Counted from the first letter of the stretch, positions 310 through 47,147 are shown. The stretch: 64,000 bases of DNA from an uncultured Candidatus Saccharibacteria bacterium (GCA_964515375.1 CAZERF010000001.1:115243-179242); one strand, 5' to 3'. Numbers and translations: made by a program. The notes: generated by a model from the letters alone, not told the origin.

Positions 310-1336
<1,027 letters not shown>

Positions 1337-1354: not shown

Positions 1355-1810
1355 ATGGAGATCCTTCACGCATTCGGTATAGAGTGGAAACTGCTCGCCA
1401 TTCAGGTGATCAACTTCGCGGTGGTGCTTTTTGTGTTGCATCGCTTTGCGTATACGCCGGTCATGGCGATCATCGCGAAACGCGAGAAGGAGATCGCGGA
1501 CGGCGTTCGTGCCGCGGAGGATGCCAAGCAAGAAGAGTCCCGTATTCGCGCGGAAAAGGAGGCAATACTCGCTCATGCGCGCGAGGAAGGAGGAAAGATC
1601 GTCGAGGAATTGCGCAAATCAGGTATCGAATCCGAACGTACGATCGTGCGTGAAGCGCAGGAGATGTCCTCTTCGATCCTGACCGATGCGCATGCACGTG
1701 CAGAAGAGGAACGCGCGCACTTGCTTCGCGAGAGCGAGAAGGAGATCGCGCGCGCCGCACTGCTTGCTGCAGAAAAGATCTTACGAGCCAATAACGCGGC
1801 CAATTCCTAG
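1355..1810 (+). CDS. atpF: F0F1 ATP synthase subunit b
   Basis: 151 aa with one N-terminal TM helix followed by a long charged (E/K/R/A-rich) helix. It sits between atpE and atpH. Confidence 0.8.
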   Translation: MEILHAFGIEWKLLAIQVINFAVVLFVLHRFAYTPVMAIIAKREKEIADGVRAAEDAKQEESRIRAEKEAILAHAREEGGKIVEELRKSGIESERTIVREAQEMSSSILTDAHARAEEERAHLLRESEKEIARAALLAAEKILRANNAANS

Positions 1811-1813
1811 ACC

Positions 1814-2218
1814 ATGCGCGCTTCGACCTACGCCAAAGCATTGCGAGAAGTCCTTCGATCACGGACTCATGATGAGGACGTTCTTGTCGAGCATTTTGTC
1901 GCGACAGTCCGCGCGAACGGTCATGAGTACCTTCTTCCCAGTATCGTGAAGGCCTTCGGGCGATTGGCGGAGAAAGAAGTGCGGAACGAGACCATCGAGG
2001 TCACTTCCGCTCACCCCCTCTCTGAGGACGATGTGGTTGGGGTCTTGAAACGACCGGAGTACCGCGACCTCCTCACCGCATCGCATCGTCGCGTCGCACG
2101 GAAGGTTGACGAAAGTATTGTCGGAGGAGTCGTCGTGCGCGCCGGTTCTCGTCGCGTTGACGGAAGTTACAAACGCGCATTGCTTGATATTTACCAAGAA
2201 TTCACCAACACCTTATAA
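1814..2218 (+). CDS. atpH: F0F1 ATP synthase subunit delta (OSCP), shortened form
   Basis: The N-terminus YAKALREVL and the C-terminal ...[29 protein letters not shown] match the delta/OSCP signature. At 134 aa it is shorter than the typical ~175 aa. Confidence 0.75.
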
Positions 2219-2241: not shown

Positions 2242-3804
2242 ATGGAACACGTAGTAGAAAAACTAAAAAAGCAGATCATCGAATTCACTCCGAAGGCCAA
2301 GCAAGAGAAGGTCGGCGTGGTCATGTCCGCCGCAGACGGTATCGCGGAGGTGGACGGACTCGACGATGTCATGATGTCCGAGATGGTCGTCTTCGAAACG
2401 ACGGAAGGGAAGAGTCTTGAGGAAACGCTTCAAGGTGAGGACGCGCTCATTGGCATGGCGCTCAATCTCGAAGAGGATTCGGTAAAGATCGTCGTGCTTG
2501 GTGATGCGACGAAGATCAAGGAAGGTATGCTCGTGCGTTCGACCGGACAGATCCTCTCGATCCCGGTCGGTGATGAGTTGGTGGGGCGTGTGGTGAACCC
2601 GCTCGGAGAAGCGTTGGACGGAGGTGTGCCCGTACGCACCGCTAAACGCAATCCGATCGAGCGTCGCGCGTATGGTGTGATCGAACGCAAATCAGTCTCG
2701 ACTCCGCTTCATACAGGTATCAAGGCGATCGACGGCATGGTGCCGATCGGTCGTGGGCAGCGCGAGCTCATCATTGGTGATCGTCAGACCGGGAAGACCG
2801 TTGTCGCGATCGACACCATTTTAAATCAATTGAATGAACCGGTTGCGAACCGCCCCATTTGTATCTATGTGGCGATCGGACAAAAGGATTCCAAGATCGC
2901 ACGTATCGTTCAACAGCTCCGCGATCGCGGTGCGATGGACTATACGATCGTTGTTTCCGCTCCCGTGTCATCGTCGGCCGCGCTTCAATTCCTTGCTCCG
3001 TACGCCGGGGCAGCTATTGGCGAGTACTTCATGGACGCGGGTCGCGACGCACTCGTGATCTATGACGATCTTTCCAAGCATGCGGTGGCGTATCGTCAAA
3101 TGTCACTTCTCTTGCGCCGTCCGCCCGGACGTGAGGCATATCCCGGAGACATTTTCTATCTCCACTCTCGCTTGCTTGAGCGTGCCGCCCGCCTTTCCGA
3201 CAAGATGGGCGGAGGATCTTTGACGGCACTTCCGATCATTGAGACACAGGAGAATGACGTGTCAGCATATATTCCGACGAACGTCATCTCGATCACAGAC
3301 GGACAGATTTATCTTGAGGCGGACCTCTTCAACAAGGGTATTCGCCCCGCGATCAACGTGGGTGTGTCTGTTTCTCGTGTCGGTTCATCCGCCCAAACCA
3401 AGGCCATGAAAAAGGTTGCCGGTCGCTTGCGTCTTGAACTCGCACAGTTCCGCGAACTTGAGGCATTCGTACAGTTCTCTTCTGATCTCGACTCCGAAAC
3501 CAAGCAGCGCATCGAGAAGGGAAAGCTCATGGTGGAGGTTTTGAAGCAAGACAAATCTGTCCCGCTTCCGTTCGAGAAACAGGTGGCAATCATCTTTGTT
3601 GCCGGCGCGGATGTGTTGAATGATTGCGACAAGACTCGCGTCTCCGCGATCGAGTCCGCGTTCTTTGCACTGCTCGAATCTCAGTACCCGGAGGTCTTGA
3701 AGGAGATCGCCGCATCGCGCGATCTTTCGGATGAATCGCAAAAGACCCTAAAGGATGCGGTGGAAACCCTCCGCGCAACCCGCCCGGAATTCTTCGGGAA
3801 GTAA
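2242..3804 (+). CDS. atpA: F0F1 ATP synthase subunit alpha
   Basis: 520 aa with Walker A GDRQTGKT and typical alpha-subunit conservation throughout. Confidence 0.97.
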
Positions 3805-3810
3805 ACGAAC

Positions 3811-4125
3811 ATGAGTATTAAACCTGAAAAAGAGAGAATCATAAAATTGTGGATCATTGGAGTGATCGAGTTCTTCGCCTCTCTTCTTCTCTTGGCTCCA
3901 ACGTTTAATACTCATGCGTGGAAGTTGAGTTGTGGAGAGTCTGCATTTCCTTGTGAAATGGGTGCCGTTTTGCTTCCGAACAGCTTACTCTATTGGGGGT
4001 ATTCATTAATGCTGATCATTTCATTTGTGGTTATTGTACTCAAAAATTTGAAGTGGGCTTGGTTCCTAAACCTCACACTCCTTATTCTTTTTGTCCCCTT
4101 TACATTTATCGCCGCAAATATTTAA
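3811..4125 (+). CDS. Small hydrophobic membrane protein of unknown function, 104 aa, 3 predicted TM helices. It is inserted between atpA and atpG.
   Basis: The ORF fills the atpA-atpG gap exactly: its stop TAA at 4123-4125 is followed by the atpG ATG at 4127. It is visibly more AT-rich than the flanking atp genes. I recognise no homolog. Confidence 0.5.
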   Translation: MSIKPEKERIIKLWIIGVIEFFASLLLLAPTFNTHAWKLSCGESAFPCEMGAVLLPNSLLYWGYSLMLIISFVVIVLKNLKWAWFLNLTLLILFVPFTFIAANI

Positions 4126-4126
4126 C

Positions 4127-5056
4127 ATGTCTCTCAAAGCCGTTAAAAACAAAATAAAGTCGATTGACAAGACTCGCCAAGTGACGAAGGCGATGGAAGC
4201 GGTCTCTGCGGTCAAGATGCGCAAGTCACAGTCGCTCGCACTCGGAACTCGCCCGTACGCGCTTTCTGCGCTCAAGATCCTTCGGAGTATCTCGGGTTCG
4301 ATCGAAGCGGCAAACCACCCGCTCACAACCGAGCGCCCGGTCACACGCACGATCCTTATTGTCGTGTCCGCGGACAAGGGGCTTGCCGGAAGCTATGGTG
4401 CGTCACTCTTGAAGCAGACGTATCGCTTCATGGCGGAGCATGCGCTCACAAAGGACAATACCGCCCTTATCATGATCGGAAAGAAAGCGCATGAGCATTT
4501 TGCAAAGCGTGGTTGGACGATTCTTGCACATTATGAGCACTGGAGTGATCACGTGGATTTCGACGCGATCCGACCGCTTGCGGACATGGTGAAGGAATTA
4601 TTCGTGAGTGGATCTTATGACCGGGTGCATATTGTGTACACAAATTTTGTTTCGACCCTGAAGCAGGCCGTGTATACACGACAACTCTTGCCGGTCTCGT
4701 TTGCGCGTGTCGAAGAGGTGGTGCGTGGGATCACCCCCGAAAAAGGCAAATTCTCCGACACTGCAAAGGGGGATGACTTGCGTGTGAAAGAGTACGTCTT
4801 CGAGCCCTCCGCGGAGACGATCCTTACAAATTTGATCCCACTTCTTTTCAATATTCAGATCTACCACTCGATCCTTGAGGCGAACGCGTCGGAACATTCC
4901 GCGCGTATGATCGCCATGAAGAATGCGTCCGACAGTGCGGGGGATATCTCGCGTGGACTCAAGCTTTACTTCAACAAGGTACGTCAATCCGCGATCACGA
5001 GAGAGGTCTCCGAGATCGTTGGTGGCATGGAGTCGATGCGTATCGTTGATCGTTAA
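4127..5056 (+). CDS. atpG: F0F1 ATP synthase subunit gamma
   Basis: MSLKAVKNKIKSIDKTRQVTKAMEAVSAVKMRK... is the typical gamma N-terminal helix, and the C-terminal helix (...ITREVSEIVGGMESM) matches too. The track ORF starts at 4091, but the ATG at 4127 avoids overlap with the upstream ORF. Confidence 0.9.
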   Translation: MSLKAVKNKIKSIDKTRQVTKAMEAVSAVKMRKSQSLALGTRPYALSALKILRSISGSIEAANHPLTTERPVTRTILIVVSADKGLAGSYGASLLKQTYRFMAEHALTKDNTALIMIGKKAHEHFAKRGWTILAHYEHWSDHVDFDAIRPLADMVKELFVSGSYDRVHIVYTNFVSTLKQAVYTRQLLPVSFARVEEVVRGITPEKGKFSDTAKGDDLRVKEYVFEPSAETILTNLIPLLFNIQIYHSILEANASEHSARMIAMKNASDSAGDISRGLKLYFNKVRQSAITREVSEIVGGMESMRIVDR

Positions 5057-5073
5057 TCATTCATCACATCATC

Positions 5074-5457
5074 ATGGACGAAGATATGAACATGGATCGG
5101 ATCGCGAAGGAGGATGTCATCGACGCCGCGAATGACCCCGAGCAGTCCGACACGCTTGACCTCCTCACGCTTTATTTCGAGCAAGAGTGCGGAGAAAGCA
5201 AGGATGCCGCGGTGATTATCAAGGAAGCGCACGATGCCGCGATGATCCTCTTTGACGCCAAACGTTACGAGGATACTGTCGAGTGGCTCGACCGAGTCGC
5301 AACCAAACTCTCCGATGAAGAAGGTCCCGACAGTGAACTCTATATGGCCTTCGCTGAAAGTGAGGAGCTTGAGGATCTTCGCATGAAGGCGACCGACAAG
5401 ATCTTTGGTGGCGAAGAAGAAGAGGAAGATGATGATTATAATAATGATGATGAATAA
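5074..5457 (+). CDS. Acidic hypothetical protein, 127 aa, with a poly-E/D tail. It lies between atpG and atpD.
   Basis: Clean ORF in the atpG-atpD gap. The C-terminus is EEEEEDDDYNNDDE, and the central segment AHDAAMILFDAKRYEDTVEWLDRV resembles a segment of the next ORF. Confidence 0.5.
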   Translation: MDEDMNMDRIAKEDVIDAANDPEQSDTLDLLTLYFEQECGESKDAAVIIKEAHDAAMILFDAKRYEDTVEWLDRVATKLSDEEGPDSELYMAFAESEELEDLRMKATDKIFGGEEEEEDDDYNNDDE

Positions 5458-5458
5458 T

Positions 5459-5866
5459 ATGCACGAAGGAGTCCCGCAAGAAGAACAAAATACTCAACCC
5501 ATTGAGTCTCAAGATGAAGATAATATGAACAAGGAAGCAACAGTAAAGGTCATCACTCCGGAATCGGTCGTCGCCACACTCAAGGAGGGGGACGTGAGTC
5601 AACTTATCGAATACCGAAAAGCCCTTGAAGAATCCATGGGTGAGACGACTGAAGGACGCTTTGATCTCGAAGAAATCATGATTCGTCTCTATGTTGCTGC
5701 AGGAATGCACGATGAAGCACTTGATACGGTTGACGCAATGCTTGATATGGCAGACGGTGAACGCAATGATGCACAATATGAACGATTCCGTGCGATGGGG
5801 ATGGAAATAAGCGCTTTGTTGAGTCAGAACAATATGCCGATCGAAACACCGAGAACAGACAACTAA
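5459..5866 (+). CDS. Acidic hypothetical protein, ~135 aa, probable paralog of the 5074..5457 product
   Basis: The track ORF starts at 5405 inside the previous gene. The ATG at 5459 (MHEGVPQEEQ...) comes right after the upstream stop and is the likely start. The segment LYVAAGMHDEALDTVDAMLDM parallels YEDTVEWLDRV of the neighbour. Confidence 0.5.
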   Translation: MHEGVPQEEQNTQPIESQDEDNMNKEATVKVITPESVVATLKEGDVSQLIEYRKALEESMGETTEGRFDLEEIMIRLYVAAGMHDEALDTVDAMLDMADGERNDAQYERFRAMGMEISALLSQNNMPIETPRTDN

Positions 5867-5885: not shown

Positions 5886-7295
<1,410 letters not shown>

Positions 7296-7315: not shown

Positions 7316-7549
7316 ATGAAACTTACCATCACACAGATCGACAAAGTGCTTTGGAAGGGTGATGCGACGAGCGTGACCGTTCCGGGCGCGAGCGGCACAA
7401 TGACCGTACTTGATCATCAGATGCCACTCATCACAACTCTCGAGAAGGGTGTCGTGATGGTGACCGCGGAAAACGGCGAAAAGACTTCATTTCCCATCAC
7501 ATCAGGCTTTCTTGAGGTGGGGAAGAGTGAGACGGTGGTGCTTGTTTAG
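7316..7549 (+). CDS. atpC: F0F1 ATP synthase subunit epsilon, N-terminal beta-sandwich domain only (77 aa)
   Basis: The sequence MKLTITQIDKVLWKGDATSVTVPGASGTMTVLDHQMPLITTLEKGVVMV matches the epsilon N-domain. The ORF stops after 77 aa and a hairpin/T-tract follows, so no C-terminal helical hairpin is encoded. Confidence 0.8.
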   Translation: MKLTITQIDKVLWKGDATSVTVPGASGTMTVLDHQMPLITTLEKGVVMVTAENGEKTSFPITSGFLEVGKSETVVLV

Positions 7550-7611: not shown

Positions 7612-10323
7612 ATGCGTGATCAAAGCGAGCGTGAATGGTATCGGTTGCCCCGCGAAGAAGTATATACGATCTTGCGCACGGGGGAAGCGGGTCTTTCGGA
7701 TGACGAAGCGGCGACTTGTCGCTTGAAAATGGGTACAAATGTCCTTTCGGACCCCAAGAAATCGTCTTTTGTTGATCGTATCGTCGATGAACTTAAGAAT
7801 CCGCTTGCTTTTGTGCTTCTCTCCGCGGGGATCGTTACGACGCTTATCCGCGAATATGTCGACTCGACGGTCATCTTTGTTGCGCTCATTATCAATGTTG
7901 CAATCAGTCTCTATCAGCAGGGTCGTGCGGACAAGGCGTTTGTCCGCCTTCGTGATTCACAGGAGAAGCATGCAACCGTCATCCGTTCAGGAGAAAAGCG
8001 ACGGATCCTCGCACGTGAACTTGTTCCCGGCGACATGATCGAGGTCGCTTCCGGAATGAATGTTCCTGCCGATGCACGGATCATTACCGCAACGCGTTGT
8101 GAGGTCAACGAGTCCGCGCTCACGGGAGAGTGGATCGACATTACCAAGGAGGATGCGTACTATGACCGCCTTCTCCCGCTTTCGGAACGGAAGAATATGC
8201 TCTATATGGGTACGCTCGTCACCTCGGGCGTCGCGCAGGCGGTCGTTGTGGCGACGGGTGACCATACTGAATTCGGGAGTATCGCTACTGCACTTAAAAA
8301 ACAAAACGAAGCGATCACTCCTCTTCAGGAAAATATCGCCAACATCGCGCGTTTTCTTTCGTATATCGTGATCGGCGCGCTCGTCGTGATCTTTGTCCTT
8401 GGAATGTTGCGCGACATTCCCTTTGCGGAACTCCTCTTGATATCGATCGCGATCGCGGTTGCCGCTATTCCTGAAGGAATGCCCGCCGCAGTCACTGTCT
8501 CTCTGGCCATCGGGATGGAGTCGATACTTCGCCGTGGAGGATTGGTGCGCAACTTGCTTGCCGCCGAGACGTTGGGTTCGACGACGGTGATCATGACTGA
8601 CAAGACCGGAACACTGACAAAAGGAGAGATGCGCATCGCGCACGTCGCAACCCTCGGAAGTCTCCGTGCCTCACTTCCTCGTGGCTCCGATGACCCTCAT
8701 GTTCCGCAAAACGGAGATGAACACGATCTTCTTCAGTTTGCGACACTTGCCTCCGATGCATATATTGAGCGCGCGCCAAAGGAAGGAGGGGCGGCTGAGG
8801 ATACCGTTGTTGGTCGTCCTGTTGAGAGAGCGATCGTCTCTGCCGCACTCGAATCCGGCATCGATCAACGCGCGTTGCTTCAAGATTTCCCGAGGATCGA
8901 GTTCCTGCCTTTTTCTTCCGACTTTCCCGTCGCGATGTCTCTTCATCGCGTGCGTGGATTGGCGGCGCACCGTTTGTACATGAGTGGTGCTCCCGAATTC
9001 TTGCTTTCTCATGCATCACTCGCCTACATCGCGGGGCGTGCTGAATCGATGAGTGAGGCGGTGCGAAATATTCTCTCTACAACGCTTTCGCGTTACGCAA
9101 GTGACGGACTCCGTGTCATTGCGGTCGCCTATCGTGAAGGCGAGGTGAAACATCTCGGAGAAACAGGAGGCGATCGACGTCGCAAAGAACTCTTGCGTGA
9201 GTTAGTTTTTGTTGGATTCATTGTCTTCCGTGATCCGTTGCGCGAGGATGCGGCTTCTTCGATTTCAGAGGCGCAAGATGGAGGTACAAGGGTCATTATG
9301 GTGACGGGAGACAATCCGGAGACCGCGCGTTCGATCGCTTTTGAGTGTGGAATATGGCACGAAGGTGACCTTGTCCTTTCGGGTGCCGATGTGGAAAAGA
9401 TGAACGACCGGACCCTCTCCGACATGCTCCCTCGTACGTCGGTCTTTGCGCGCATGACTCCCGACAACAAGATGCGGATCGCGCGTTTACTCCTTGCTTC
9501 GGGTGAGGTTGTCGCGATGACGGGAGACGGAGTGAACGACGCTCCTGCTTTGCGCGTCGCTTCGATCGGCATCGCGCTCGGTTCCGGTACTGAGGTTGCA
9601 AAGGAGGCTTCCGATCTCGTTCTGCTTTCCAATAGTTTCCGCATTATTGTTGCGGCGATCGAAGAGGGGAGAAGAATCATCGACAACCTGCGCAAGATCG
9701 TCGCGTACCTCCTTTCTACATCGGGAGGAGAGATCATTGTTGTCGGGGGAGCGCTTGCATTCGGTCTTCCTCTTCCGCTTCTTCCCGCGCAGATCCTCTG
9801 GACGAATATCCTCTCCGAGGGATTCATGAATTTTTCATTTGCCTTCGAGCCGAAAGAGGCGGACCTCATGCAACGCGATCCGAAGCACTCCAGTGCGCGC
9901 ACAATGCTTTCACGCCGGCTCATGGTCTTTGTGACAACGCTCGCACTCTCTTCGGGGGCACTCCTCCTGCTCTTGTATTGGTACCTTATGAAAATGACCG
10001 ACATGTCGCTTGACGGCGCAAGAACCGTCATGTTCATTGCGCTCACGCTGGTGATGGTCTTTTCGGTCTTTTCTCTCAAAGATCTTCGCGCGCCGATCTG
10101 GAAGACGCGAATCTGGAATAATCCTTACATCTTTGCGTCCATAGGAATCACCCTTTTTGGACTTTTTCTCGCACTCTTTGTCCCTCCGGTCACGGATATG
10201 CTGCGGCTCGTTCCCGGTGAGGCAAAGGCGCACCCCTTCCTCTTCGCGGCTGTCGTTGTGGCGAATATTCTCGCCATTGAACTCGCTAAATATCTGCTAT
10301 TTTCACGGCGCGTGCATTCGTGA
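7612..10323 (+). CDS. P-type cation-transporting ATPase (type II, SERCA/PMCA-like)
   Basis: 903 aa carrying the phosphorylation motif DKTGTLT, TGDN and the hinge GDGVNDAPAL. A cation-ATPase N-domain and 10 TM segments are present. Confidence 0.9.
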   Translation: MRDQSEREWYRLPREEVYTILRTGEAGLSDDEAATCRLKMGTNVLSDPKKSSFVDRIVDELKNPLAFVLLSAGIVTTLIREYVDSTVIFVALIINVAISLYQQGRADKAFVRLRDSQEKHATVIRSGEKRRILARELVPGDMIEVASGMNVPADARIITATRCEVNESALTGEWIDITKEDAYYDRLLPLSERKNMLYMGTLVTSGVAQAVVVATGDHTEFGSIATALKKQNEAITPLQENIANIARFLSYIVIGALVVIFVLGMLRDIPFAELLLISIAIAVAAIPEGMPAAVTVSLAIGMESILRRGGLVRNLLAAETLGSTTVIMTDKTGTLTKGEMRIAHVATLGSLRASLPRGSDDPHVPQNGDEHDLLQFATLASDAYIERAPKEGGAAEDTVVGRPVERAIVSAALESGIDQRALLQDFPRIEFLPFSSDFPVAMSLHRVRGLAAHRLYMSGAPEFLLSHASLAYIAGRAESMSEAVRNILSTTLSRYASDGLRVIAVAYREGEVKHLGETGGDRRRKELLRELVFVGFIVFRDPLREDAASSISEAQDGGTRVIMVTGDNPETARSIAFECGIWHEGDLVLSGADVEKMNDRTLSDMLPRTSVFARMTPDNKMRIARLLLASGEVVAMTGDGVNDAPALRVASIGIALGSGTEVAKEASDLVLLSNSFRIIVAAIEEGRRIIDNLRKIVAYLLSTSGGEIIVVGGALAFGLPLPLLPAQILWTNILSEGFMNFSFAFEPKEADLMQRDPKHSSARTMLSRRLMVFVTTLALSSGALLLLLYWYLMKMTDMSLDGARTVMFIALTLVMVFSVFSLKDLRAPIWKTRIWNNPYIFASIGITLFGLFLALFVPPVTDMLRLVPGEAKAHPFLFAAVVVANILAIELAKYLLFSRRVHS

Positions 10324-10335
10324 TACACTCACAGC

Positions 10336-11421
10336 ATGGAAACCGCATTTTATGTTTTGATCGCGCTTTTTGTGGGCGCCGGAGTTGTTTGGTTCATTGT
10401 GGGACGCAAAAGGGAAGAGGTTGAGGGTACTCAAAACAAGGAGACCATGCTCCTTTTGCAACAATTGAACGAGATGAACAAACTCCTTGATACTCGTCTC
10501 TCGGAGTCGCGCAAAGAGATGACCGACGCGGTTCGTGTGCAATTTTCCGAATCCCAGCGCCTTCTCCGCGAGATCAATGAGCAGATGAACAAAAGTCTCG
10601 TTGATGTCGCGCGCGAACAGACCAAGACCAACGAAGCAACGACACGATTCATGTCGATCGCCGAGCAGCTCGCCAGTCTCGAAAAGACATTGAAGCACCA
10701 GAAACAGCGCGGGAACTTGGGCGAAGCATCGCTTGAACTCATACTCTCCAACATCTTGCCGCCGGGCACGTACAAGATGCAGCACGAGTTCGCGAACAAG
10801 GAAAAAGTGGATGCGATCATCGTCACCAAAGAAGGTGTCATTCCCGTCGATGCAAAGTTCTCGCTCGACAACTACAATCGAGTGACGATGGCGATCGATG
10901 ACAAGCAGCGCGAGGAGCTTGAGAAAGAATTCAAGAATGACCTCAAAAAGCGCATCGACGAGACCGCAAAGTATATTCGCCCCGAAGAGGGGACTCTTCC
11001 GTTCGCTTTTATGTTCATTCCTGCCGAAGGAATCTACTACGACCTGCTGATCAATGAAGTGGGCGCGGTCAAAGTGAATACGCGCAATCTTATTGACTAT
11101 GCCTACAACGACAAAAAGGTGATCATCGTCTCTCCGACGACCTTTGCTGCCTATCTCCAGTCTGTGCTCTACGGGTTCAAGGCGTTCAAGATCGAAGAGG
11201 GCGCCAAGGAGATCGGAAAGCGTGTCGGCGAGCTCGGCAAACATTTGAAGGCGTATGAGGAGTATATGGCGAAGCTTGGTAATGCACTTGGAACTACGGT
11301 CAATCACTACAACGCGGCGCACAAAGAATTAGGAAAGATCGACAAAGATGTGACCCGTATCACGGGTGGAAGTCCGGGGATCGATGTGCTCCAGATCGAC
11401 AAGCCCGACCAAGGAGAATAA
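10336..11421 (+). CDS. rmuC: DNA recombination protein RmuC family
   Basis: N-terminal TM helix, a long coiled coil, then the conserved RmuC C-terminal nuclease-like region (...FMFIPAEGIYYDLL...VIIVSPTTFAAYLQ...). Confidence 0.8.
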   Translation: METAFYVLIALFVGAGVVWFIVGRKREEVEGTQNKETMLLLQQLNEMNKLLDTRLSESRKEMTDAVRVQFSESQRLLREINEQMNKSLVDVAREQTKTNEATTRFMSIAEQLASLEKTLKHQKQRGNLGEASLELILSNILPPGTYKMQHEFANKEKVDAIIVTKEGVIPVDAKFSLDNYNRVTMAIDDKQREELEKEFKNDLKKRIDETAKYIRPEEGTLPFAFMFIPAEGIYYDLLINEVGAVKVNTRNLIDYAYNDKKVIIVSPTTFAAYLQSVLYGFKAFKIEEGAKEIGKRVGELGKHLKAYEEYMAKLGNALGTTVNHYNAAHKELGKIDKDVTRITGGSPGIDVLQIDKPDQGE

Positions 11422-27022: not shown

Positions 27023-27544
27023 ATGTGCTCCGCGGGGATCCTTGCGATCACCATGAAGGAACATGTTACTCAAGACGCGACCACTCTTTTTGCTTTGACC
27101 AGTCCCGCATGGGGAGACGGTGGTTTTGTTCCTTCCGAATATACCTGTGACGGATTCGGCGAAAGCCCCGAACTCTTGATCTCGAATACCCCCGAAGGAA
27201 CTTCTTCTCTTGTTCTCATCATGCACGACCCAGACGTGCCTCGTGCGATACGTCCAGACGGCAATTTTGACCACTGGGTCCTCTATGATATCGATCCGAA
27301 GACGGTAATCATCCCAAGGAATACGTCGGTTGGTACTGAAGGACTGAATAGTGTGTGCAAGAAGGGTTATGTCGGACCATGTCCGCCGAACGGTGAACAT
27401 CGCTACATTTTCGATCTCTACGCACTCGATAGGAGATTGGATCTTCCTCCGCGTGCGACGCGTCGTGAAGTTGAATGCGCAATGAAATCCGTAACGGTAC
27501 TTGGCGCGGCAACACTTTTGGGGCGATATCGAAGAGGAGGGTGA
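27023..27544 (+). CDS. PEBP-family protein (YbhB/YbcL-like phosphatidylethanolamine-binding protein)
   Basis: Conserved LVLIMHDPDVPR...DHWVLYDID...GYVGPCPPNGEHRYIFDLYAL. Confidence 0.85.
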   Translation: MCSAGILAITMKEHVTQDATTLFALTSPAWGDGGFVPSEYTCDGFGESPELLISNTPEGTSSLVLIMHDPDVPRAIRPDGNFDHWVLYDIDPKTVIIPRNTSVGTEGLNSVCKKGYVGPCPPNGEHRYIFDLYALDRRLDLPPRATRREVECAMKSVTVLGAATLLGRYRRGG

Positions 27545-27938
27545 GAGTGTTTTTTTTGCCGTTTTCTGCGGTTCTTTTCCGTGACTCAATACGTCGCACA
27601 ATATATCTTTTACGACATAATACGAAAGAAGAAATGGCCTTGTGTGGCCGTAGTTATTTCTTTTTCCAAAATCGGCTTTTTTAGATTTTTCTTGTCTTGC
27701 ATTCTTTTTTCATCCACCATTCTCCTTATCTATTTTCTTGCTCGAATGTCTGTCTTCTTGATTCGATACCGTCTCGACTCGCTTCTCCTCATTGGGCATT
27801 TGATGTGATCAAAAAATATTTTCACATTTTGTTATTGCAAAGAAGATACCCGGAGAGACTCCCCTGTTGTGTCGCACAATACAGAGGCGACGCAGTCGAA
27901 AAAAGAAAGATGGAATCGAGTGGGGTTTGAGAGTGAGA

Positions 27939-28112
27939 TTACTCCGTGTGTTCGGCCGGAGTACTTGTACTTGAGTCGTGCTGAGTAGGTATCCCACGCG
28001 CACGGAGCCAGTCGGGAAAACCGCTTTCGTCGACGATCTTGCGGACATCGATATTGAAGTAATACGCCAGTGCGGCGAAGAGAATGAATGTTGCGATAAT
28101 GCGAAAGACCAT
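27939..28112 (-). CDS. Possible small membrane protein, 57 aa, below the ORF-track length cutoff
   Basis: Read by hand: MVFRIIATFILFAALAYYFNIDVRKIVDESGFPDWLRARGIPTQHDSSTSTPAEHTE*. It is a single TM helix located 49 nt downstream of the M23 peptidase gene on the same strand. Confidence 0.25.
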   Translation of the reverse strand: MVFRIIATFILFAALAYYFNIDVRKIVDESGFPDWLRARGIPTQHDSSTSTPAEHTE

Positions 28113-41619: not shown

Positions 41620-43268
41620 GGGCGATAATTCTCCAAATATTTATTTCCCAATGATGATGGAGGTGTATCGGAAAGAAAGAAATCTGCAAGTCCGGAAAGT
41701 GACGGATAAACAATATTTGTTCCGTGATGTGGTTCGATGTGGATATCCCCCTCAAACGCTCCATTTTTACTCATTGCAACTTCAAAGGCGCGAATCTTCC
41801 CGTCAAGAGCATAAATCGCTGATTGAGGAGAGGAGCATGCGACGTGAGGATTATGTTCCCCATGCACATGCCATCCTTCGGGTATCCTTTCTGGATCAAC
41901 ATATCCGTGCCAGTGCGCAATCGCGAGTCCTTGTTGTGTAAGGTTGGTGATGAAACGTGAGCCCGGCTTCTTGTAGGAAAGCACCGCTGCGATAATAGCA
42001 TTGCCGATGGCATGCGCAAGGATAACGCGCGTATCAAATGAAGGTTTGTAGTCGGGAGTCAATACGAGTCCGCTCGGTGTTTCCATACTCATGACTCCAT
42101 TATGTAATTTAAGCTTTAAGAGATCACGTGACGGATTTAGATTTGTTTTATCCGCTCCCGAGCGTTGTGTGAGAATTTCAACTTCCGGAAGATGTAAAAT
42201 AAGATCTTCTTTTCCGAAGCTCATACGAAGATATGTCTCATCCTCCACTTCAAAAATACCACCAGAAGGAGGAATCATCTCTTTTTTAAACTTTTGCATG
42301 GCCACCTCCATACTCATTGCCGGTGCGATCTTTGTTGGCATTTGCCATGCAAGAAAACCAAAACTCATCCCATTTCGATGATCAAGATGTATTTTCCCAA
42401 TCCAACGATAGAAGCCATTTCGAAATGGGAGCTCGTCAATCTTCTTTCCTGGAGGATAGAGCCCCGTTCCCTGCATGCGGTGACTTCCTTCAATAAAATC
42501 TTTGACGATTTGAGCGTGTCGCTCATCGTGGATATCAAAATGTTTGTTAAGAGAATGAAATTCGGACAACCGGACAGGTTGTATCGGTGCGACAATCTTG
42601 GGGATCAACGCAGACAGTAATGCCTCTCGGAAATCTTCTCCACGAAGAGAGAAGAAGGGGTGCGAAGCATTGAAGTTGTAGAGCAGCCATTCATCGCTCC
42701 CGACCCCAATGACAATATTAGACATATGGTGTGCAAAAAGTGACATTGCGGTGTCGAAGTGTTTGTAGAAATCTGATTTTTTTGAAACTCCATCCGGCAT
42801 ATCAAGCACTGTCACAATTGAGGTGCGGCGAAAACTTGTTGTTCTATCCATTGGGAGCATGTTCGTTTCTTGTTCGCCAACTGAAACAACAGAAATACCA
42901 GGGGTAAAACGTCGCCGGTGACGCAAGATATTCAAGATCGCAGAGGGGTGAACGGGGTGCTTTTTTTGCGAGGAGTGCGTGAGATTGTAAAGAAGGACAT
43001 GGATGTCACGAAGGATTATGACCCCGGCGCGCATCAGTGCTGAATGAAGAGGAACGATGTGTAACGCTTTTTCAGTTGGAATAAGTTGAACTCCAAGCGA
43101 TGAGAGTTCCGCTTCGAATCGTTCCATGAAAAAGAGAACATTTGAAGAGACCTTCTTCTTGTCATAAGGAAGTATTGTGAGCTTTAGCTCACTAAGCATC
43201 TCTTCGCTTTTGGTCGGAGTGTGGGTGCTTATTCCGAGTATGCGTTCAATCACCTCTTGGTGCAGCAT
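41616..43268 (-). CDS. Hypothetical protein, 550 aa, His-rich C-terminal region, no domain recognised
   Basis: Long clean ORF with protein-like composition, translationally coupled to the downstream histidine kinase. It contains GWHVHGEHNPH...DIHIEPHHG. Confidence 0.55.
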   Translation of the reverse strand: MLHQEVIERILGISTHTPTKSEEMLSELKLTILPYDKKKVSSNVLFFMERFEAELSSLGVQLIPTEKALHIVPLHSALMRAGVIILRDIHVLLYNLTHSSQKKHPVHPSAILNILRHRRRFTPGISVVSVGEQETNMLPMDRTTSFRRTSIVTVLDMPDGVSKKSDFYKHFDTAMSLFAHHMSNIVIGVGSDEWLLYNFNASHPFFSLRGEDFREALLSALIPKIVAPIQPVRLSEFHSLNKHFDIHDERHAQIVKDFIEGSHRMQGTGLYPPGKKIDELPFRNGFYRWIGKIHLDHRNGMSFGFLAWQMPTKIAPAMSMEVAMQKFKKEMIPPSGGIFEVEDETYLRMSFGKEDLILHLPEVEILTQRSGADKTNLNPSRDLLKLKLHNGVMSMETPSGLVLTPDYKPSFDTRVILAHAIGNAIIAAVLSYKKPGSRFITNLTQQGLAIAHWHGYVDPERIPEGWHVHGEHNPHVACSSPQSAIYALDGKIRAFEVAMSKNGAFEGDIHIEPHHGTNIVYPSLSGLADFFLSDTPPSSLGNKYLENYRP

Positions 43269-44026: not shown

Positions 44027-45103
44027 TTATACACCCTCATCTCGCAATTCTTCAATCAGTTGTTTTGCTTTCTTTGAAAGTTTTGCAGGAGAAGAAAGTT
44101 TCAAGTGAATAAGCAGGTCACCTTGCTTGCCGTGAAGTGTATTCGGCACCCCCTTCTCCTTGAGTCGCAAGATGTCGCCGAAATTAACTCCCGCAGGAAC
44201 TTTTACTTCGAGCGGTTTTCCGTCGAGCGCAGTGATCGTGTAGGTTGCTCCGAGCAATGCGTCGGAGAGTTTGATCGTGAGGTCGGCCACGAGATTATTT
44301 CCCTCGCGACGGAACATCTCGTGCGGAGTAACATGGATCTTAATGTAGAGATCTCCCGAAATCCCGCGCGCCACACCCTCTCCTCTTCCACTCATGCGAA
44401 TCATTTCGCCGTTCTGGATCCCCGCAGGGATCGGGATCGTGATCGTTTCTTCTTTTTTATTCACGCCAAGTCCGTGACACTCGGTGCATTTTTCCTCAGG
44501 AACCTTCCCTGTTCCCGCACATACTTGACAGGGGCGCACGGTCGAAAAGCTTCCGAGAAAAGAACGACGCATCTCGCTTACCTTCCCCTTTCCGTCGCAG
44601 GTCGTACATGTTTTGAGCGTACTTCCCGGCTTTGCCCCGCTTCCGCTACATGTCGCACAGCGCGTGGTCTTTCCGAGAGTTATCGTGCGTTCAACTCCAA
44701 AGATACTGTCCTTGAAGGAAAGTTCCATATCCACAGAGATATCTCTTCCCCGTTCCTCGCGCACCCCTCCGGAGGACGCGAATCCCCCGCCGAAGAAATC
44801 GTTGAATATATCACCGAGGTCGGCAGCGTCGAATCCTTCTCCAAAACCCTGAAAACCTCCGCCGTAAGCACCATACGGATTTCCACCACCCGTCGGTCCT
44901 TCTGCTCCATACACATCATAGGCTTCCCTCTTGCGATCATCCGAGAGGGTTTGATACGCCTCATTCACTTCTTTGAATTTTTTCTCATCACCGCCTTTTT
45001 TGTCGGGGTGATATTTATGCGCCAATTTATGGAATGCCTTTTTTATCTCCTCCTTGGTTGCCTTCTTGTCTACTCCGAGTATCTCATAGTAATCTTTTGC
45101 CAT
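44027..45103 (-). CDS. dnaJ: Chaperone DnaJ
   Basis: J-domain with HPD (KYHPDKK), a G/F region, and four CxxCxGxG repeats. Confidence 0.95.
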   Translation of the reverse strand: MAKDYYEILGVDKKATKEEIKKAFHKLAHKYHPDKKGGDEKKFKEVNEAYQTLSDDRKREAYDVYGAEGPTGGGNPYGAYGGGFQGFGEGFDAADLGDIFNDFFGGGFASSGGVREERGRDISVDMELSFKDSIFGVERTITLGKTTRCATCSGSGAKPGSTLKTCTTCDGKGKVSEMRRSFLGSFSTVRPCQVCAGTGKVPEEKCTECHGLGVNKKEETITIPIPAGIQNGEMIRMSGRGEGVARGISGDLYIKIHVTPHEMFRREGNNLVADLTIKLSDALLGATYTITALDGKPLEVKVPAGVNFGDILRLKEKGVPNTLHGKQGDLLIHLKLSSPAKLSKKAKQLIEELRDEGV

Positions 45104-45206
45104 AGTGTCCGGTTTTGGGTTAGTTGTTCGCCATATACGCGAAGTACAGATTGAAGTATACTTATTTTTCCGCTATTTGACAACTATTTGATTCACTGCT
45201 TTTATG

Positions 45207-45239
45207 CAAAAAAATCCTCGTTGATACGAGGATTTTTTA
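45207..45239. terminator. Hairpin terminator/attenuator between dnaK and dnaJ
   Basis: ATCCTCG-ttgata-CGAGGAT is flanked by A7 and T6. Confidence 0.7.
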
Positions 45240-45254
45240 TTTTACTGTGAGTGA

Positions 45255-47147
45255 TCACACGTCGTGAACCTTTCCTGATGAGGGCTCCTGACCCTCTTCG
45301 TTTTTCGGTGCCTCACCTTCCCCGCTTGGAGTCTCGGAGGTGCTTTGTTGTTTTGCCATCTCCTCCCCGATCTTTTGAAGCGCGTCAGAGAGTGCCTCGG
45401 TATCCTTTTTGATCACTTCCATGTCGCCCTCCTCCTTGCTTTTCTTGAGCGTGGCGATCTTTGCTTCGACATCAGACTTGATCGTGGCGGGGACTTTCTC
45501 TCCTTGCTCATGAAGCGAACGCTCCGCGGTGTAGATCAAGCTTTCGGCAATGTTTGTGACCTCGATCTTTTCCTTCATCTTTCGATCTTCTTCGGCGTGC
45601 GCATCGGCCTCGTTCTTCATGCGCTCAATATCCTCCTTAGAAAGGGACGAGCGTGCTTCGATGCGAATAGACTGTTCCTTTCCGGAGGTCTTGTCTTTCG
45701 CTTTGACGTTCAAGATACCGTTCGCATCAACGTCAAAGGTCACTTCGACCTGTGGGACGCCACGTGGCGCGGGAGGGATGCCGTCGAGCATGAAGCGTCC
45801 AAGAGACTTGTTCTGTGAGGCCATAGGTCGCTCACCTTGTACGACATGGACTTCTACTGAGGTTTGGTTATCCGCGGCGGTCGAAAAGACTTGGCTTTTT
45901 GACGCAGGGATCGTTGTATTCTTTTCGATCAAATGAGTCGCAACGCCACCCATCGTCTCGATACCAAGCGAAAGCGGGATCACGTCGAGCAGAAGGATGT
46001 CGTGCACATCGCCCTGAAGGATACCGCCTTGGATCGCAGCTCCCGCGGCGACGACTTCATCAGGATTCACGGACATGTTCGGTTTCTTTCCGAAATATGA
46101 TTCAACCGCCTTTTGCATTGCCGGCATGCGCGTTTGTCCGCCGACAAGAATAACTTCGTTGATCTCACTGATACCGAAAGGTGACGCTTCCATCGCGCGC
46201 TTTGAGATCTCCATGGCGCGGTCAATAAACTCTTGAGTCAATTCTTCAAGTTTTGCCCGGGAAAGTTTGATGACGAGATGTTTCGGACCAGTCGCGTCGG
46301 AGGTGATGAATGGGAGGTTGACCTCTGATTCCATCGCGCTCGAAAGTTCGATCTTTGCCTTCTCCGCCGCTTCGTCGAGACGCTGCTTCGCCAAGGGGTC
46401 ATTGCGAACATCAATACCGGAATCTTTTTTGAACTCCTCGGCAAGATAATTGATAATCTTTTGGTCAATGTCTTTCCCTCCAAGGTGCGCATCGCCGTCG
46501 GTCGCTTTGACCTCAATGACATCTTCACCAACCTCAAGCACGGAAATGTCAAACGTTCCGCCACCAAAGTCGAACACGACAACCTTTTCATTCTTCTTTT
46601 TGTTGAATCCGTACGCGAGAGCCGCCGCGGTCGGCTCATTAATGATACGCTTGACTTCGAGACCCGCGATCTTGCCCGCATCTTTTGTTGCCTGACGCTG
46701 AGAATCATTGAAGTACGCGGGCACCGTGATGACTGCTTCCGTGATCTTTTCTCCAAGCTTTGCCTCAGCATCTGCTTTGAGTTTTTGGAGGATCATTGCG
46801 GACGCTTCTTCCGGACGATACCATTTTTCCCCCATCTTGACCTCAATACCGCCATTGTCCGATTTGCGCATTTCAAAAGGCACAACATTTCTGTCTTTTT
46901 GGATAGCGTCTTCGTCAAAGTTGTGTCCAATGAACCGCTTGATCTGATAGATCGTTCCTTTCGGATTGGTGACGGCCTGACGTTTTGCCGCAAGTCCGAC
47001 CACGCGCTCTCCCGTTTTTGCCTCAGCCGCAATGGACGGGGTCGTTCTCATTCCTTCAACGTTCTCGATGATACGAGGTTCTCCCGCTTCAACGATCGCC
47101 ATTGCACAGTTTGTCGTACCGAGATCGATACCAAGAATCTTTGCCAT
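45255..47147 (-). CDS. dnaK: Chaperone DnaK (Hsp70)
   Basis: [17 protein letters not shown], and a substrate-binding domain with a C-terminal lid. Confidence 0.97.

Follow-up and report, generated by a model that had tools for sequence, protein, structure and literature searches.

The atpA–atpG junction and orf104

The DNA analysed here, which we call the window, is a stretch of 64,000 nucleotides (nt) from an uncultured Candidatus Saccharibacteria bacterium (GCA_964515375.1 CAZERF010000001.1:115243-179242), and it contains an F-type ATP synthase (atp) operon in the canonical order BEFHA-x-G-x-x-DC, in which each x is an extra open reading frame (ORF) among the F1 genes (Table 1). The first of these, orf104, is the subject of this study: it is an orphan membrane protein gene wedged between the genes for the alpha (atpA) and gamma (atpG) subunits, at a site that we refer to as the slot; the other two are orf127 and orf135. 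A first-pass annotation of the window had described a hydrophobic ORF of 104 amino acids (aa) and three helices that exactly fills this gap, and so it does. The last codons of atpA (FFGK-TAA, with the stop at 3802–3804) end 6 nt 5′ of the orf104 ATG, the orf104 stop (TAA, 4123–4125) is followed by a single nucleotide and then by the atpG ATG, and hydropathy analysis recovers three hydrophobic segments.

Table 1. Features of the atp operon and of orf104 in the window.
Position	Strand	Feature	Remark
310/322–1065		atpB	F-type atp operon
1109–1336		atpE	
1355–1810		atpF	
1814–2218		atpH	
2242–3804	+	atpA (F1 alpha)	upstream flank of the slot; Pfam ATP-synt_ab, 9e-81
3805–3810	+	spacer ACGAAC	6 nt, atpA stop to orf104 ATG
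3810–3916	+	inverted repeats	perfect 14-nt pair 3810–3823/3903–3916 and nested 11-nt pair 3826–3836/3879–3889
3811–4125	+	orf104	orphan membrane protein gene, 104 codons, three predicted helices
3811–3846	+	basic N-terminus, residues 1–12	M[SN]I.PE[KR]ER[IF]IKL; 7/12 invariant, synonymous changes underneath
3847–3900	+	predicted TM1, residues 13–30	conserved membrane-embedded E20 (D in L091); 5/18 invariant
3901–3975	+	loop, residues 31–55	holds the 2-codon indel; 7/25 invariant
3976–4041	+	predicted TM2, residues 56–77	conserved PN.LLYWGY motif
4054–4122	+	predicted TM3 and C-terminus, residues 82–104	WAW..N..LL.LFVPF.FIAANI; 16/23 invariant
4123–4129	+	stop–start junction TAAcATG	orf104 to atpG
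4127–5056	+	atpG (F1 gamma)	downstream flank of the slot; Pfam, 5.7e-84
5074–5457	+	orf127	second extra gene; acidic helical protein
5459–5866	+	orf135	third extra gene; second variable slot
5901–7295		atpD	
7316–7549		atpC	
TM, transmembrane segment.

The 6-nt distance from the atpA stop is identical in all four lineages that carry orf104 and in L093 (loci are cited by L-numbers), which has a different, 118-aa ORF at this position, and the arrangement TAA-N-ATG at the boundary with atpG recurs in four of four orf104 lineages and in a deletion remnant of the gene (L094). No promoter- or terminator-like site beyond chance was found flanking orf104. Because the genome hardly uses Shine–Dalgarno (SD) sites, we dropped an argument for orf104 expression that relied on them: SD-like motifs lie upstream of only 7 of the 51 long ORFs in the window, and the stretches before the atp genes are G-poor and rich in C, T and A (for example, tcatcacttcaccATG), which suggests SD-independent initiation in this organism.

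An alpha–gamma junction is normally tight, as the annotation had stated: the gap was shorter than 110 bp in ~75 other atp loci fetched with AtpG, the exceptions being L017 (939 bp) and L035 (642 bp), both from bacteria of the Candidate Phyla Radiation (CPR). L035, a Wildermuthbacteria metagenome-assembled genome (MAG), encodes a 224-aa single-helix protein at the junction (3491–4165), and the gap of L017 (~4020–5000) has no convincing plus-strand ORF. We place the window organism in the CPR, near Candidatus Lloydbacteria. Among species-representative genomes, the closest relatives by AtpG (71–74% identity) were MAGs labelled Candidatus Lloydbacteria, Paceibacterota or Patescibacteria (L009–L014), in which the atpA TAA is followed by 3 nt and then the atpG ATG. 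Because these outgroup junctions are 3 nt long, the 0.32-kb orf104 segment is an insertion into an ancestrally tight junction, which agrees with the annotation's suggestion of a later insertion. Birth of the gene in situ from non-coding DNA was rejected on the same 3-nt junctions and on the lack of nucleotide similarity to the rest of the operon; orf104 does have the narrow distribution expected of a de novo gene, with no homologues elsewhere. We likewise rejected descent from a frameshifted copy of atpG or of a different atp gene, because neither nucleotide nor six-frame comparison showed similarity; the MS[IL]K start that orf104 (MSIK) and atpG (MSLK) have in common is too short to judge.

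The gene is AT-richer than the flanking atp genes, again as first described. Its G+C fraction (GC) of 0.39 compares with a mean of 0.508 ± 0.038 in the window and lies at the 0.24th percentile of 315-nt windows, and its GC at the three codon positions (GC1/2/3) is 0.39/0.34/0.44 versus ~0.6/0.4/0.64 in the atp genes. T makes up 37% of the gene and a fraction of 0.47 at codon position 2 (0.47–0.49 in the slot ORFs). GC3 of orf104 is 0.43–0.49 in all lineages, versus 0.59–0.67 in atp genes, although synonymous divergence between the lineages is saturated; the AT-richness is therefore maintained and is not just a fading foreign signature. Other low-GC troughs of the window (0.37–0.39, at 27452–27979, 44888–45332 and 42027–42461) yielded no convincing small membrane ORF.

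orf104 is a real protein-coding gene, under purifying selection in deep comparisons. Given its composition, a frame this long would be open by chance with a probability of 0.0025, and the remaining five frames contain 3–11 stops each. Four lineages (the window with L001–L007; L008; L089, L090 and L092; and L091) hold the gene in the same slot and frame, the sole change in length being an in-frame deletion of two codons in a loop (L091, 102 aa). In pairs drawn from the three deep lineages, the proportion of synonymous sites that differ (pS) is 0.62–0.84, which is saturated, and that of nonsynonymous sites (pN) is 0.21–0.24; the ratio of nonsynonymous to synonymous substitution rates (dN/dS, omega) is 0.17–0.22 where dS can be estimated, and third-position differences dominate (for example, 28, 22 and 54 at the first, second and third positions). 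The rate resembles that of the less conserved ATP synthase subunits, of which b, delta and epsilon are 63%, 52% and 65% identical in the same comparison. Between the window and L008 omega is 0.79, and the substitutions, which fall 14, 12 and 5 at the three codon positions, are largely conservative, with many hydrophobic swaps in the helices. Dual coding as the cause of this last pattern was rejected, since all other frames are closed and the counts are not significantly non-uniform.

Contents and history of the slot in related strains

Searches that overall spanned ~15 billion proteins found relatives of orf104 only within its own family. None beyond it appeared in a word-indexed search of 5.8 billion clusters, in an exhaustive phmmer search of 1.84 billion representatives, in a profile search, or in a DNA-level scan of JGI metagenomes. 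Nor was there a match in Pfam (three members, to E ≤ 10), NCBIfam, PHROG, PADLOC or PDB sequences, in phage and plasmid collections (tblastn), in a scan of viral contigs, or to a paralogue within the window, and Foldseek with a low-confidence model from AlphaFold2 (AF2; predicted local distance difference test, pLDDT, 58.6) returned just matches with E ≥ 7.7, which are meaningless. A full-text literature search found no gene described 'between atpA and atpG', and nothing relevant was found in the literature on CPR and ATP synthase.

The family is confined to four species-level lineages. The window organism is represented by 8 contigs, each from another sample, with 99.9% identity between their nucleotide sequences, and the orf104 proteins of the other lineages are 81% (L008), 63% (L089, L090 and L092) and 62% (L091) identical to that of the window. 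For L089, L090 and L092 one gene caller gave a 60-aa C-terminal piece; the full 104-codon frame is intact and was called elsewhere as P0005. When properly aligned, the AtpG of L089 is 80% identical to that of the window. All known copies occupy the atpA/atpG slot, and the spacing is constant.

Relatives much closer to the window than L008 came from a search with orf127, a neighbour in the operon, and once these had been found we abandoned a single ancestral insertion followed by simple vertical descent. In clade A, whose AtpG and AtpA are 96–99% and 95–98% identical to those of the window, the slot contains orf104 in the window, a different 118-aa ORF with three hydrophobic helices in L093 (GC 0.40), and the sequence 'TAA atata ATG GCT GCA AAT ATT TAA c ATG' in L094, a 5-codon remnant (M-A-A-N-I*) that matches the last 5 codons of orf104; L095 has a 31-nt spacer with no ORF. 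In clade B, where AtpG is 99–100% identical and nt 301–930 of atpG are 98.6–100% identical, L091 carries an orf104 allele, L099 and L101 a 123-aa three-helix ORF (GC 0.42), and L098 a 22-nt spacer, the orf127 protein of L098 being identical to that of L099. A further lineage (L102–L104) has a 69-aa non-membrane ORF (L102 2819–3028; L104 451–660), which opens with 10 codons (MSLKSVKNKI) that repeat the atpG N-terminus, apart from synonymous differences, before unrelated AT-rich sequence begins; this looks like an insertion just inside atpG that captured its start. The 118- and 123-aa alternatives are AT-rich (GC 0.40–0.42), each with a chance of being open of ~0.001. As possible insert remnants, the spacers of L095 and L098 gave merely chance matches of 6–8 nt.

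The atpA/atpG slot is therefore a hypervariable cassette site in one subclade of Lloydbacteria-like CPR bacteria. An assembly artefact is unlikely, because each slot state recurs in independent assemblies. Because strains with 96–100% identical AtpG carry an unrelated ORF, a remnant or nothing in the slot, orf104 is dispensable for the ATP synthase; the idea of an obligatory subunit thus failed the synteny check, the junction being uninterrupted in L095 and L098 and reduced to a remnant in L094 in organisms whose ATP synthase proteins are 96–100% identical to those of orf104 carriers. No homology between orf104 and the 118- and 123-aa ORFs was detectable by BLASTP (E = 4.6) or hhalign (probability 5%), and in a scan of 9231 ORFs with an orf104 hidden Markov model (HMM) they ranked within the noise. 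Hints of kinship are a collinear 21–23% identity with the L093 ORF, a similar [KR]W.W..N..L.IL stretch in L101, and the 5′ junction and M-N-I start that the L093 ORF shares with the L091 allele of orf104.

Comparisons of divergence across these contigs show that the history of the orf104 alleles is discordant with that of the flanking genes. Between the window and L008, orf104 is 90% identical at the nucleotide level, with dS of 0.127, dN of 0.101 and a transition:transversion count of 26:5, versus dS of 1.37, dN of 0.098 and a count of 111:91 in atpG and dS of 1.29 in the tail of atpA. Conversely, L089 and L091 have AtpG proteins that are 92% identical and orf104 proteins only 60% identical, as far apart as alleles from the two clades. 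Within clade B, identity is 93–97% over the initial 300 nt of atpG and 99–100% further in, and the last atpA codons differ. The first 180–300 nt of atpG behave as part of the exchanged tract. The simplest reading would be that alleles were moved, replaced or deleted by homologous recombination with breakpoints in the conserved flanks.

The 5′ end of orf104 carries a perfect inverted repeat of 14 nt, inside which an 11-nt pair is nested; in the RNA, the start codon would be base-paired. The repeat is common to the window and L008 only, L008 keeping the pairing through two wobble-compatible transitions; L089, L093 and L101 are without it, and the stem of L091 has 8 bp and is shifted in register. 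A conserved start-sequestering hairpin was rejected on this distribution, on the different stem of L091 and on folding z-scores of −2.7 to +0.3, and a search of Rfam with positions 3600–4400 gave nothing near threshold. We also rejected an element resembling a miniature inverted-repeat transposable element, since the repeat arm has no other copy in the 64 kb (~0.17 chance matches with ≤2 mismatches are expected in the window). No transposase, integrase, tRNA or repeat copies were tied to orf104, no target-site duplication was found at the slot beyond AACATG, and there was no antitoxin or toxin partner gene.

The operon varies at other points as well. In all Lloydbacteria-like loci (17 clusters, 50–100% identity), including L009–L014, L089, L091, L093, L095, L098, L101 and L102, the interval from atpG to atpD contains orf127, which encodes a very acidic protein of 120–129 aa. 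The protein matches no Pfam family; its AF2 model is confident (pLDDT 83.7, predicted template modelling score 0.74), with six helices and a disordered poly-acidic tail, and resembles other folds only weakly, the matches being similar to tetratricopeptide repeats (best E 0.35). It could be a lineage-wide F1-associated protein. The acidic orf135 is present only in the window and L008 (1740–2156; 57% identity) and is missing from L093 and L095, which are far more closely related to the window; there, ~50 nt separate orf127 from atpD. In L104 its position is taken by an 86-aa ORF of unrelated sequence. The orf127–atpD interval is a second variable slot of the same operon. The window's ATP synthase is a trimmed one: epsilon has just 77 aa, a beta-sandwich domain with the C-terminal helical domain absent, and delta, with 134 aa, matches only positions 54–168 of the OSCP profile. 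Directly 3′ of atpC are genes for a P-type cation ATPase (903 aa; 7612–10323) and RmuC (10336–11421), an order kept in L089, L093 and L095.

The orf104 protein and known ATP synthase factors

Hydropathy places three hydrophobic segments at residues ~13–30, 56–77 and 82–103 of the orf104 protein, and the low-confidence AF2 model puts helices at 5–32, 34–43, 50–77 and 80–103. Conservation is uneven: the fraction of invariant residues is 0.58 in the N-terminus, 0.28 in TM1, 0.28 in the loop (31–55), 0.55 in TM2 and 0.70 in TM3 with the C-terminus. Positions that are invariant or change only conservatively are E20/D20 in TM1, N87 in TM3 and the FIAANI at the C-terminus. The loop retains two cysteines at a spacing that shifts (C41/C48, C41/C46 or C41/C44). 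With 3–4 K/R at the N-terminus and 1–3 in the turn between TM2 and TM3, the positive-inside rule points to a cytoplasmic basic N-terminus, with the Cys-pair loop and the C-terminus probably outside; the external loop would be variable and possibly disulfide-bonded.

Small hydrophobic proteins encoded in the operons of membrane energy-transducing complexes are familiar from KdpF (kdpFABC) and CydX (cydABX), which are single-helix proteins of fewer than 40 aa, conserved together with the complex that they have been shown to bind; the likeness to orf104 is one of analogy only. In atp operons, extra hydrophobic genes have precedents in atpZ of Bacillus pseudofirmus and in orfX of Nonomuraea (PMC4453477), and AtpI is known as a c-ring assembly factor (PMC8904574). 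Like AtpI and AtpZ, orf104 is a small polytopic membrane protein of an atp operon that the enzyme can do without, at least in some organisms. The first-pass annotation had raised the possibility of an AtpI-like assembly factor in a non-canonical position, noting that no atpI precedes atpB. The data are consistent with that last observation, since the window contains no AtpI/AtpZ-like ORF upstream of atpB (1–309). In relatives the gene upstream of atpB lies on the opposite strand, and in the Lloydbacteria loci compared (L009–L013, L089, L093 and L095) it is a divergently oriented gene for a soluble protein, with no atpI or atpZ; many other CPR loci (L018, L019, L021, L024, L031, L032, L036 and L041) have a two-helix AtpZ gene directly before atpB, and three of the four upstream sequences tested from CPR loci matched PF09527.

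The assembly-factor proposal itself fared badly. orf104 matched neither AtpI (PF03899), AtpZ (PF09527) nor AtpR (PF12966) in Pfam even at E ≤ 10, and hhalign gave probabilities of 0.1% against an 8-sequence AtpI alignment from the fetched loci and 1.5% against a 9-sequence, mostly CPR, alignment of AtpZ-like ORFs upstream of the operon; as controls, the AtpI of L037 matched PF03899 at 4.4e-17 and CPR AtpZ proteins matched PF09527 at 1.7e-13 to 3.8e-6. AtpI has ~120–140 aa and ~4 helices (gamma-proteobacterial AtpI gave 3–4 segments by our hydropathy method) and AtpZ is a two-helix hairpin with a G..LD...GT.P loop, whereas orf104 has 104 aa and three segments. The genes for AtpI and AtpZ stand at the 5′ end of the operon before atpB and are broadly conserved, whereas orf104 stands between F1 genes in four lineages and is polymorphic among strains. 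Likewise, atpI, atpZ and the Nonomuraea orfX all precede atpB, are conserved within lineages and are unrelated in sequence to orf104, and the N-type ATPase genes atpQ and atpR belong to an operon of a different order (atpDCQRBEFAG). These sequence and profile comparisons show that orf104 is not a member of the AtpI or AtpZ families. Overall, the annotation's interpretation is partly supported: its description was correct, and an AtpI-like or obligatory-subunit role was not upheld.

Interpretation of the slot

Our preferred reading, to which we assign a probability of roughly 55%, is that orf104 encodes a strain-specific accessory membrane protein that exploits expression of the atp operon and takes no part in the working of the enzyme. 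The cassette was inserted into a junction of ancestrally 3 nt, is presumably co-transcribed with the atp genes and would be translated in series with them in a head-to-tail chain (atpA stop, 6 nt, ATG...TAA, 1 nt, atpG ATG). Selection keeps the protein sequence while the gene is present, and alleles would be replaced or lost by homologous recombination, with the conserved 3′ end of atpA and 5′ end of atpG as arms. The product would serve a strain-specific membrane or envelope function, using the strong atp expression signal and taking no part in Fo.

The strain-level pattern resembles that of replacement-type flexible genomic islets, which are strain-variable loci between conserved genes that are exchanged by homologous recombination. 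Like them, the slot has mutually exclusive contents, or none, between near-identical flanks; the alternatives are non-homologous (very distant homology is possible), their composition is deviant, their genealogy is discordant on operon-scale contigs, and divergence is raised in the immediately adjacent flanks. Unlike them, the slot holds a single gene of 0.3–0.4 kb within an essential, translationally chained operon and has no mobility genes, and the surface-structure functions of islets have no known counterpart in its cassette. orf104 also resembles the T-rich orphan membrane proteins described previously (PMC7005711) in being taxonomically restricted, T-rich and predicted to form transmembrane helices; unlike de novo T-rich proteins, it did not arise from ancestral non-coding DNA in place and is already under clear purifying selection.

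Several points weigh against this reading. The strain-specific envelope function is a guess from the distribution pattern, not from homology. The location of all copies inside the atp operon is what would be expected of a protein linked to the ATP synthase. The omega of 0.79 between the window and L008 is compatible with relaxed short-term constraint. The three long types of slot ORF, all encoding three-helix membrane proteins, may belong to one family whose alleles have diverged beyond recognition and share a role, which might be related to Fo. Finally, most of the contigs are short metagenome assemblies, and strain linkage was deduced from one to three flanking genes.

A role associated with Fo is no more than possible, and its explicit form, which we consider unlikely, is that orf104 is a lineage-specific Fo accessory subunit or assembly factor, a functional analogue of AtpI or AtpZ that would be produced along with the F1 subunits and bind the a subunit or the c-ring, the alternative ORFs being fast-diverged alleles with the same job. 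Besides the sole known location within the atp operon and the stop–start spacing kept on both sides, this proposal draws on purifying selection that is strongest in TM2, TM3 and the membrane-embedded E/D20 and N87, on the three hydrophobic helices of all three long slot ORFs, and on the precedents of atpZ and the Nonomuraea orfX. The absence of AtpZ from Lloydbacteria loci, when many other CPR loci have it upstream of atpB, leaves room for a replacement factor; yet L009–L014 have neither atpZ nor orf104. Against it stand the lack of sequence or profile similarity to AtpI, AtpZ or AtpR, the strains with 96–100% identical AtpG whose slot has no ORF (L095 and L098) or a 5-codon remnant (L094), the GC3 that sets orf104 apart from atp genes in every lineage, and the lack of support for homology between the three kinds of ORF. 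Transmembrane ORFs arise readily, by default, from T-rich sequence (PMC7005711), which may explain the three-helix look of unrelated inserts.

A more elaborate variant, which we regard as a long shot, would have the slot encode strain-specific membrane proteins that dock to Fo and belong to one fast-diversifying family, with conserved docking through TM2, TM3 and the basic cytoplasmic turn and a variable, selected external loop bearing the Cys pair. The products might act in phage or host-cell interactions of the presumably episymbiotic CPR cells or in tuning the ATP synthase, and negative frequency-dependent selection would keep the ancient (orf104, 118-aa and 123-aa) and null alleles.

We consider it very improbable that orf104 is instead selfish or addictive, whether as a small gene for a toxin-like or exclusion protein of the membrane or as the relic of a mobile element with the atpA/atpG junction as its target. 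Deviant composition, patchy strain distribution, an allele history at odds with the backbone and the perfect inverted repeat at the 5′ end would all fit, as would the duplicated atpG start of the L102 insert, which is expected from illegitimate insertion. The searches for mobility genes, tRNAs, repeat copies, a target-site duplication beyond AACATG and a toxin or antitoxin partner were empty, however, the repeat arm is unique in the 64 kb, and the phage, plasmid, PHROG and PADLOC collections held no match. Of the neutral or selfish insert first proposed, the insertion stands; a plain neutral or selfish reading does not, given the purifying selection in deep comparisons.

We think even less of the idea that the product is irrelevant and the open frame a translational relay that brings ribosomes to the atpG start in an SD-poor organism. 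It would account for the TAA-N-ATG kept in all lineages and even in the L094 remnant, for the scarcity of SD-like motifs (7 of 51 long ORFs), for the filling of the slot by one open frame in all inserts, the non-membrane 69-aa ORF of L102 included, and for the omega of 0.79 between the window and L008. A mere open frame would not show invariant motifs or a pN of 0.21–0.24 against saturated pS, however, and L095 and L098 would have to express atpG from an untranslated spacer of 22–31 nt. The notion that orf104 is no gene but a fortuitous open frame in AT-rich spacer DNA or part of a structured RNA, for which the lack of database homology, the low GC and the 14, 12 and 5 substitutions between the window and L008 might be cited, is effectively refuted by the open-frame probability of 0.0025, by the constancy of frame and length across four lineages, in which the indel is in frame and third-position changes dominate, and by the lack of an Rfam match and the unremarkable folding z-scores.

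The slot thus resembles a combination of known kinds, namely orphan accessory genes, flexible islets and extra atp-operon ORFs, reduced in this case to a single gene within a housekeeping operon. The atp operons are among the most conserved bacterial gene arrangements, and here the alpha–gamma junction is a population-level variable site that holds mutually exclusive orphan membrane protein genes, inserted in the translation chain of an essential enzyme. If their products touch Fo, they would form a new class of accessory proteins of the ATP synthase, and one of unusual plasticity. Otherwise, the locus would show streamlined genomes parking and exchanging small membrane genes in strongly expressed housekeeping operons, and with it the birth, selection and loss of such genes. 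Either way, the slot offers a compact marker for strain-resolved tracking of these organisms.

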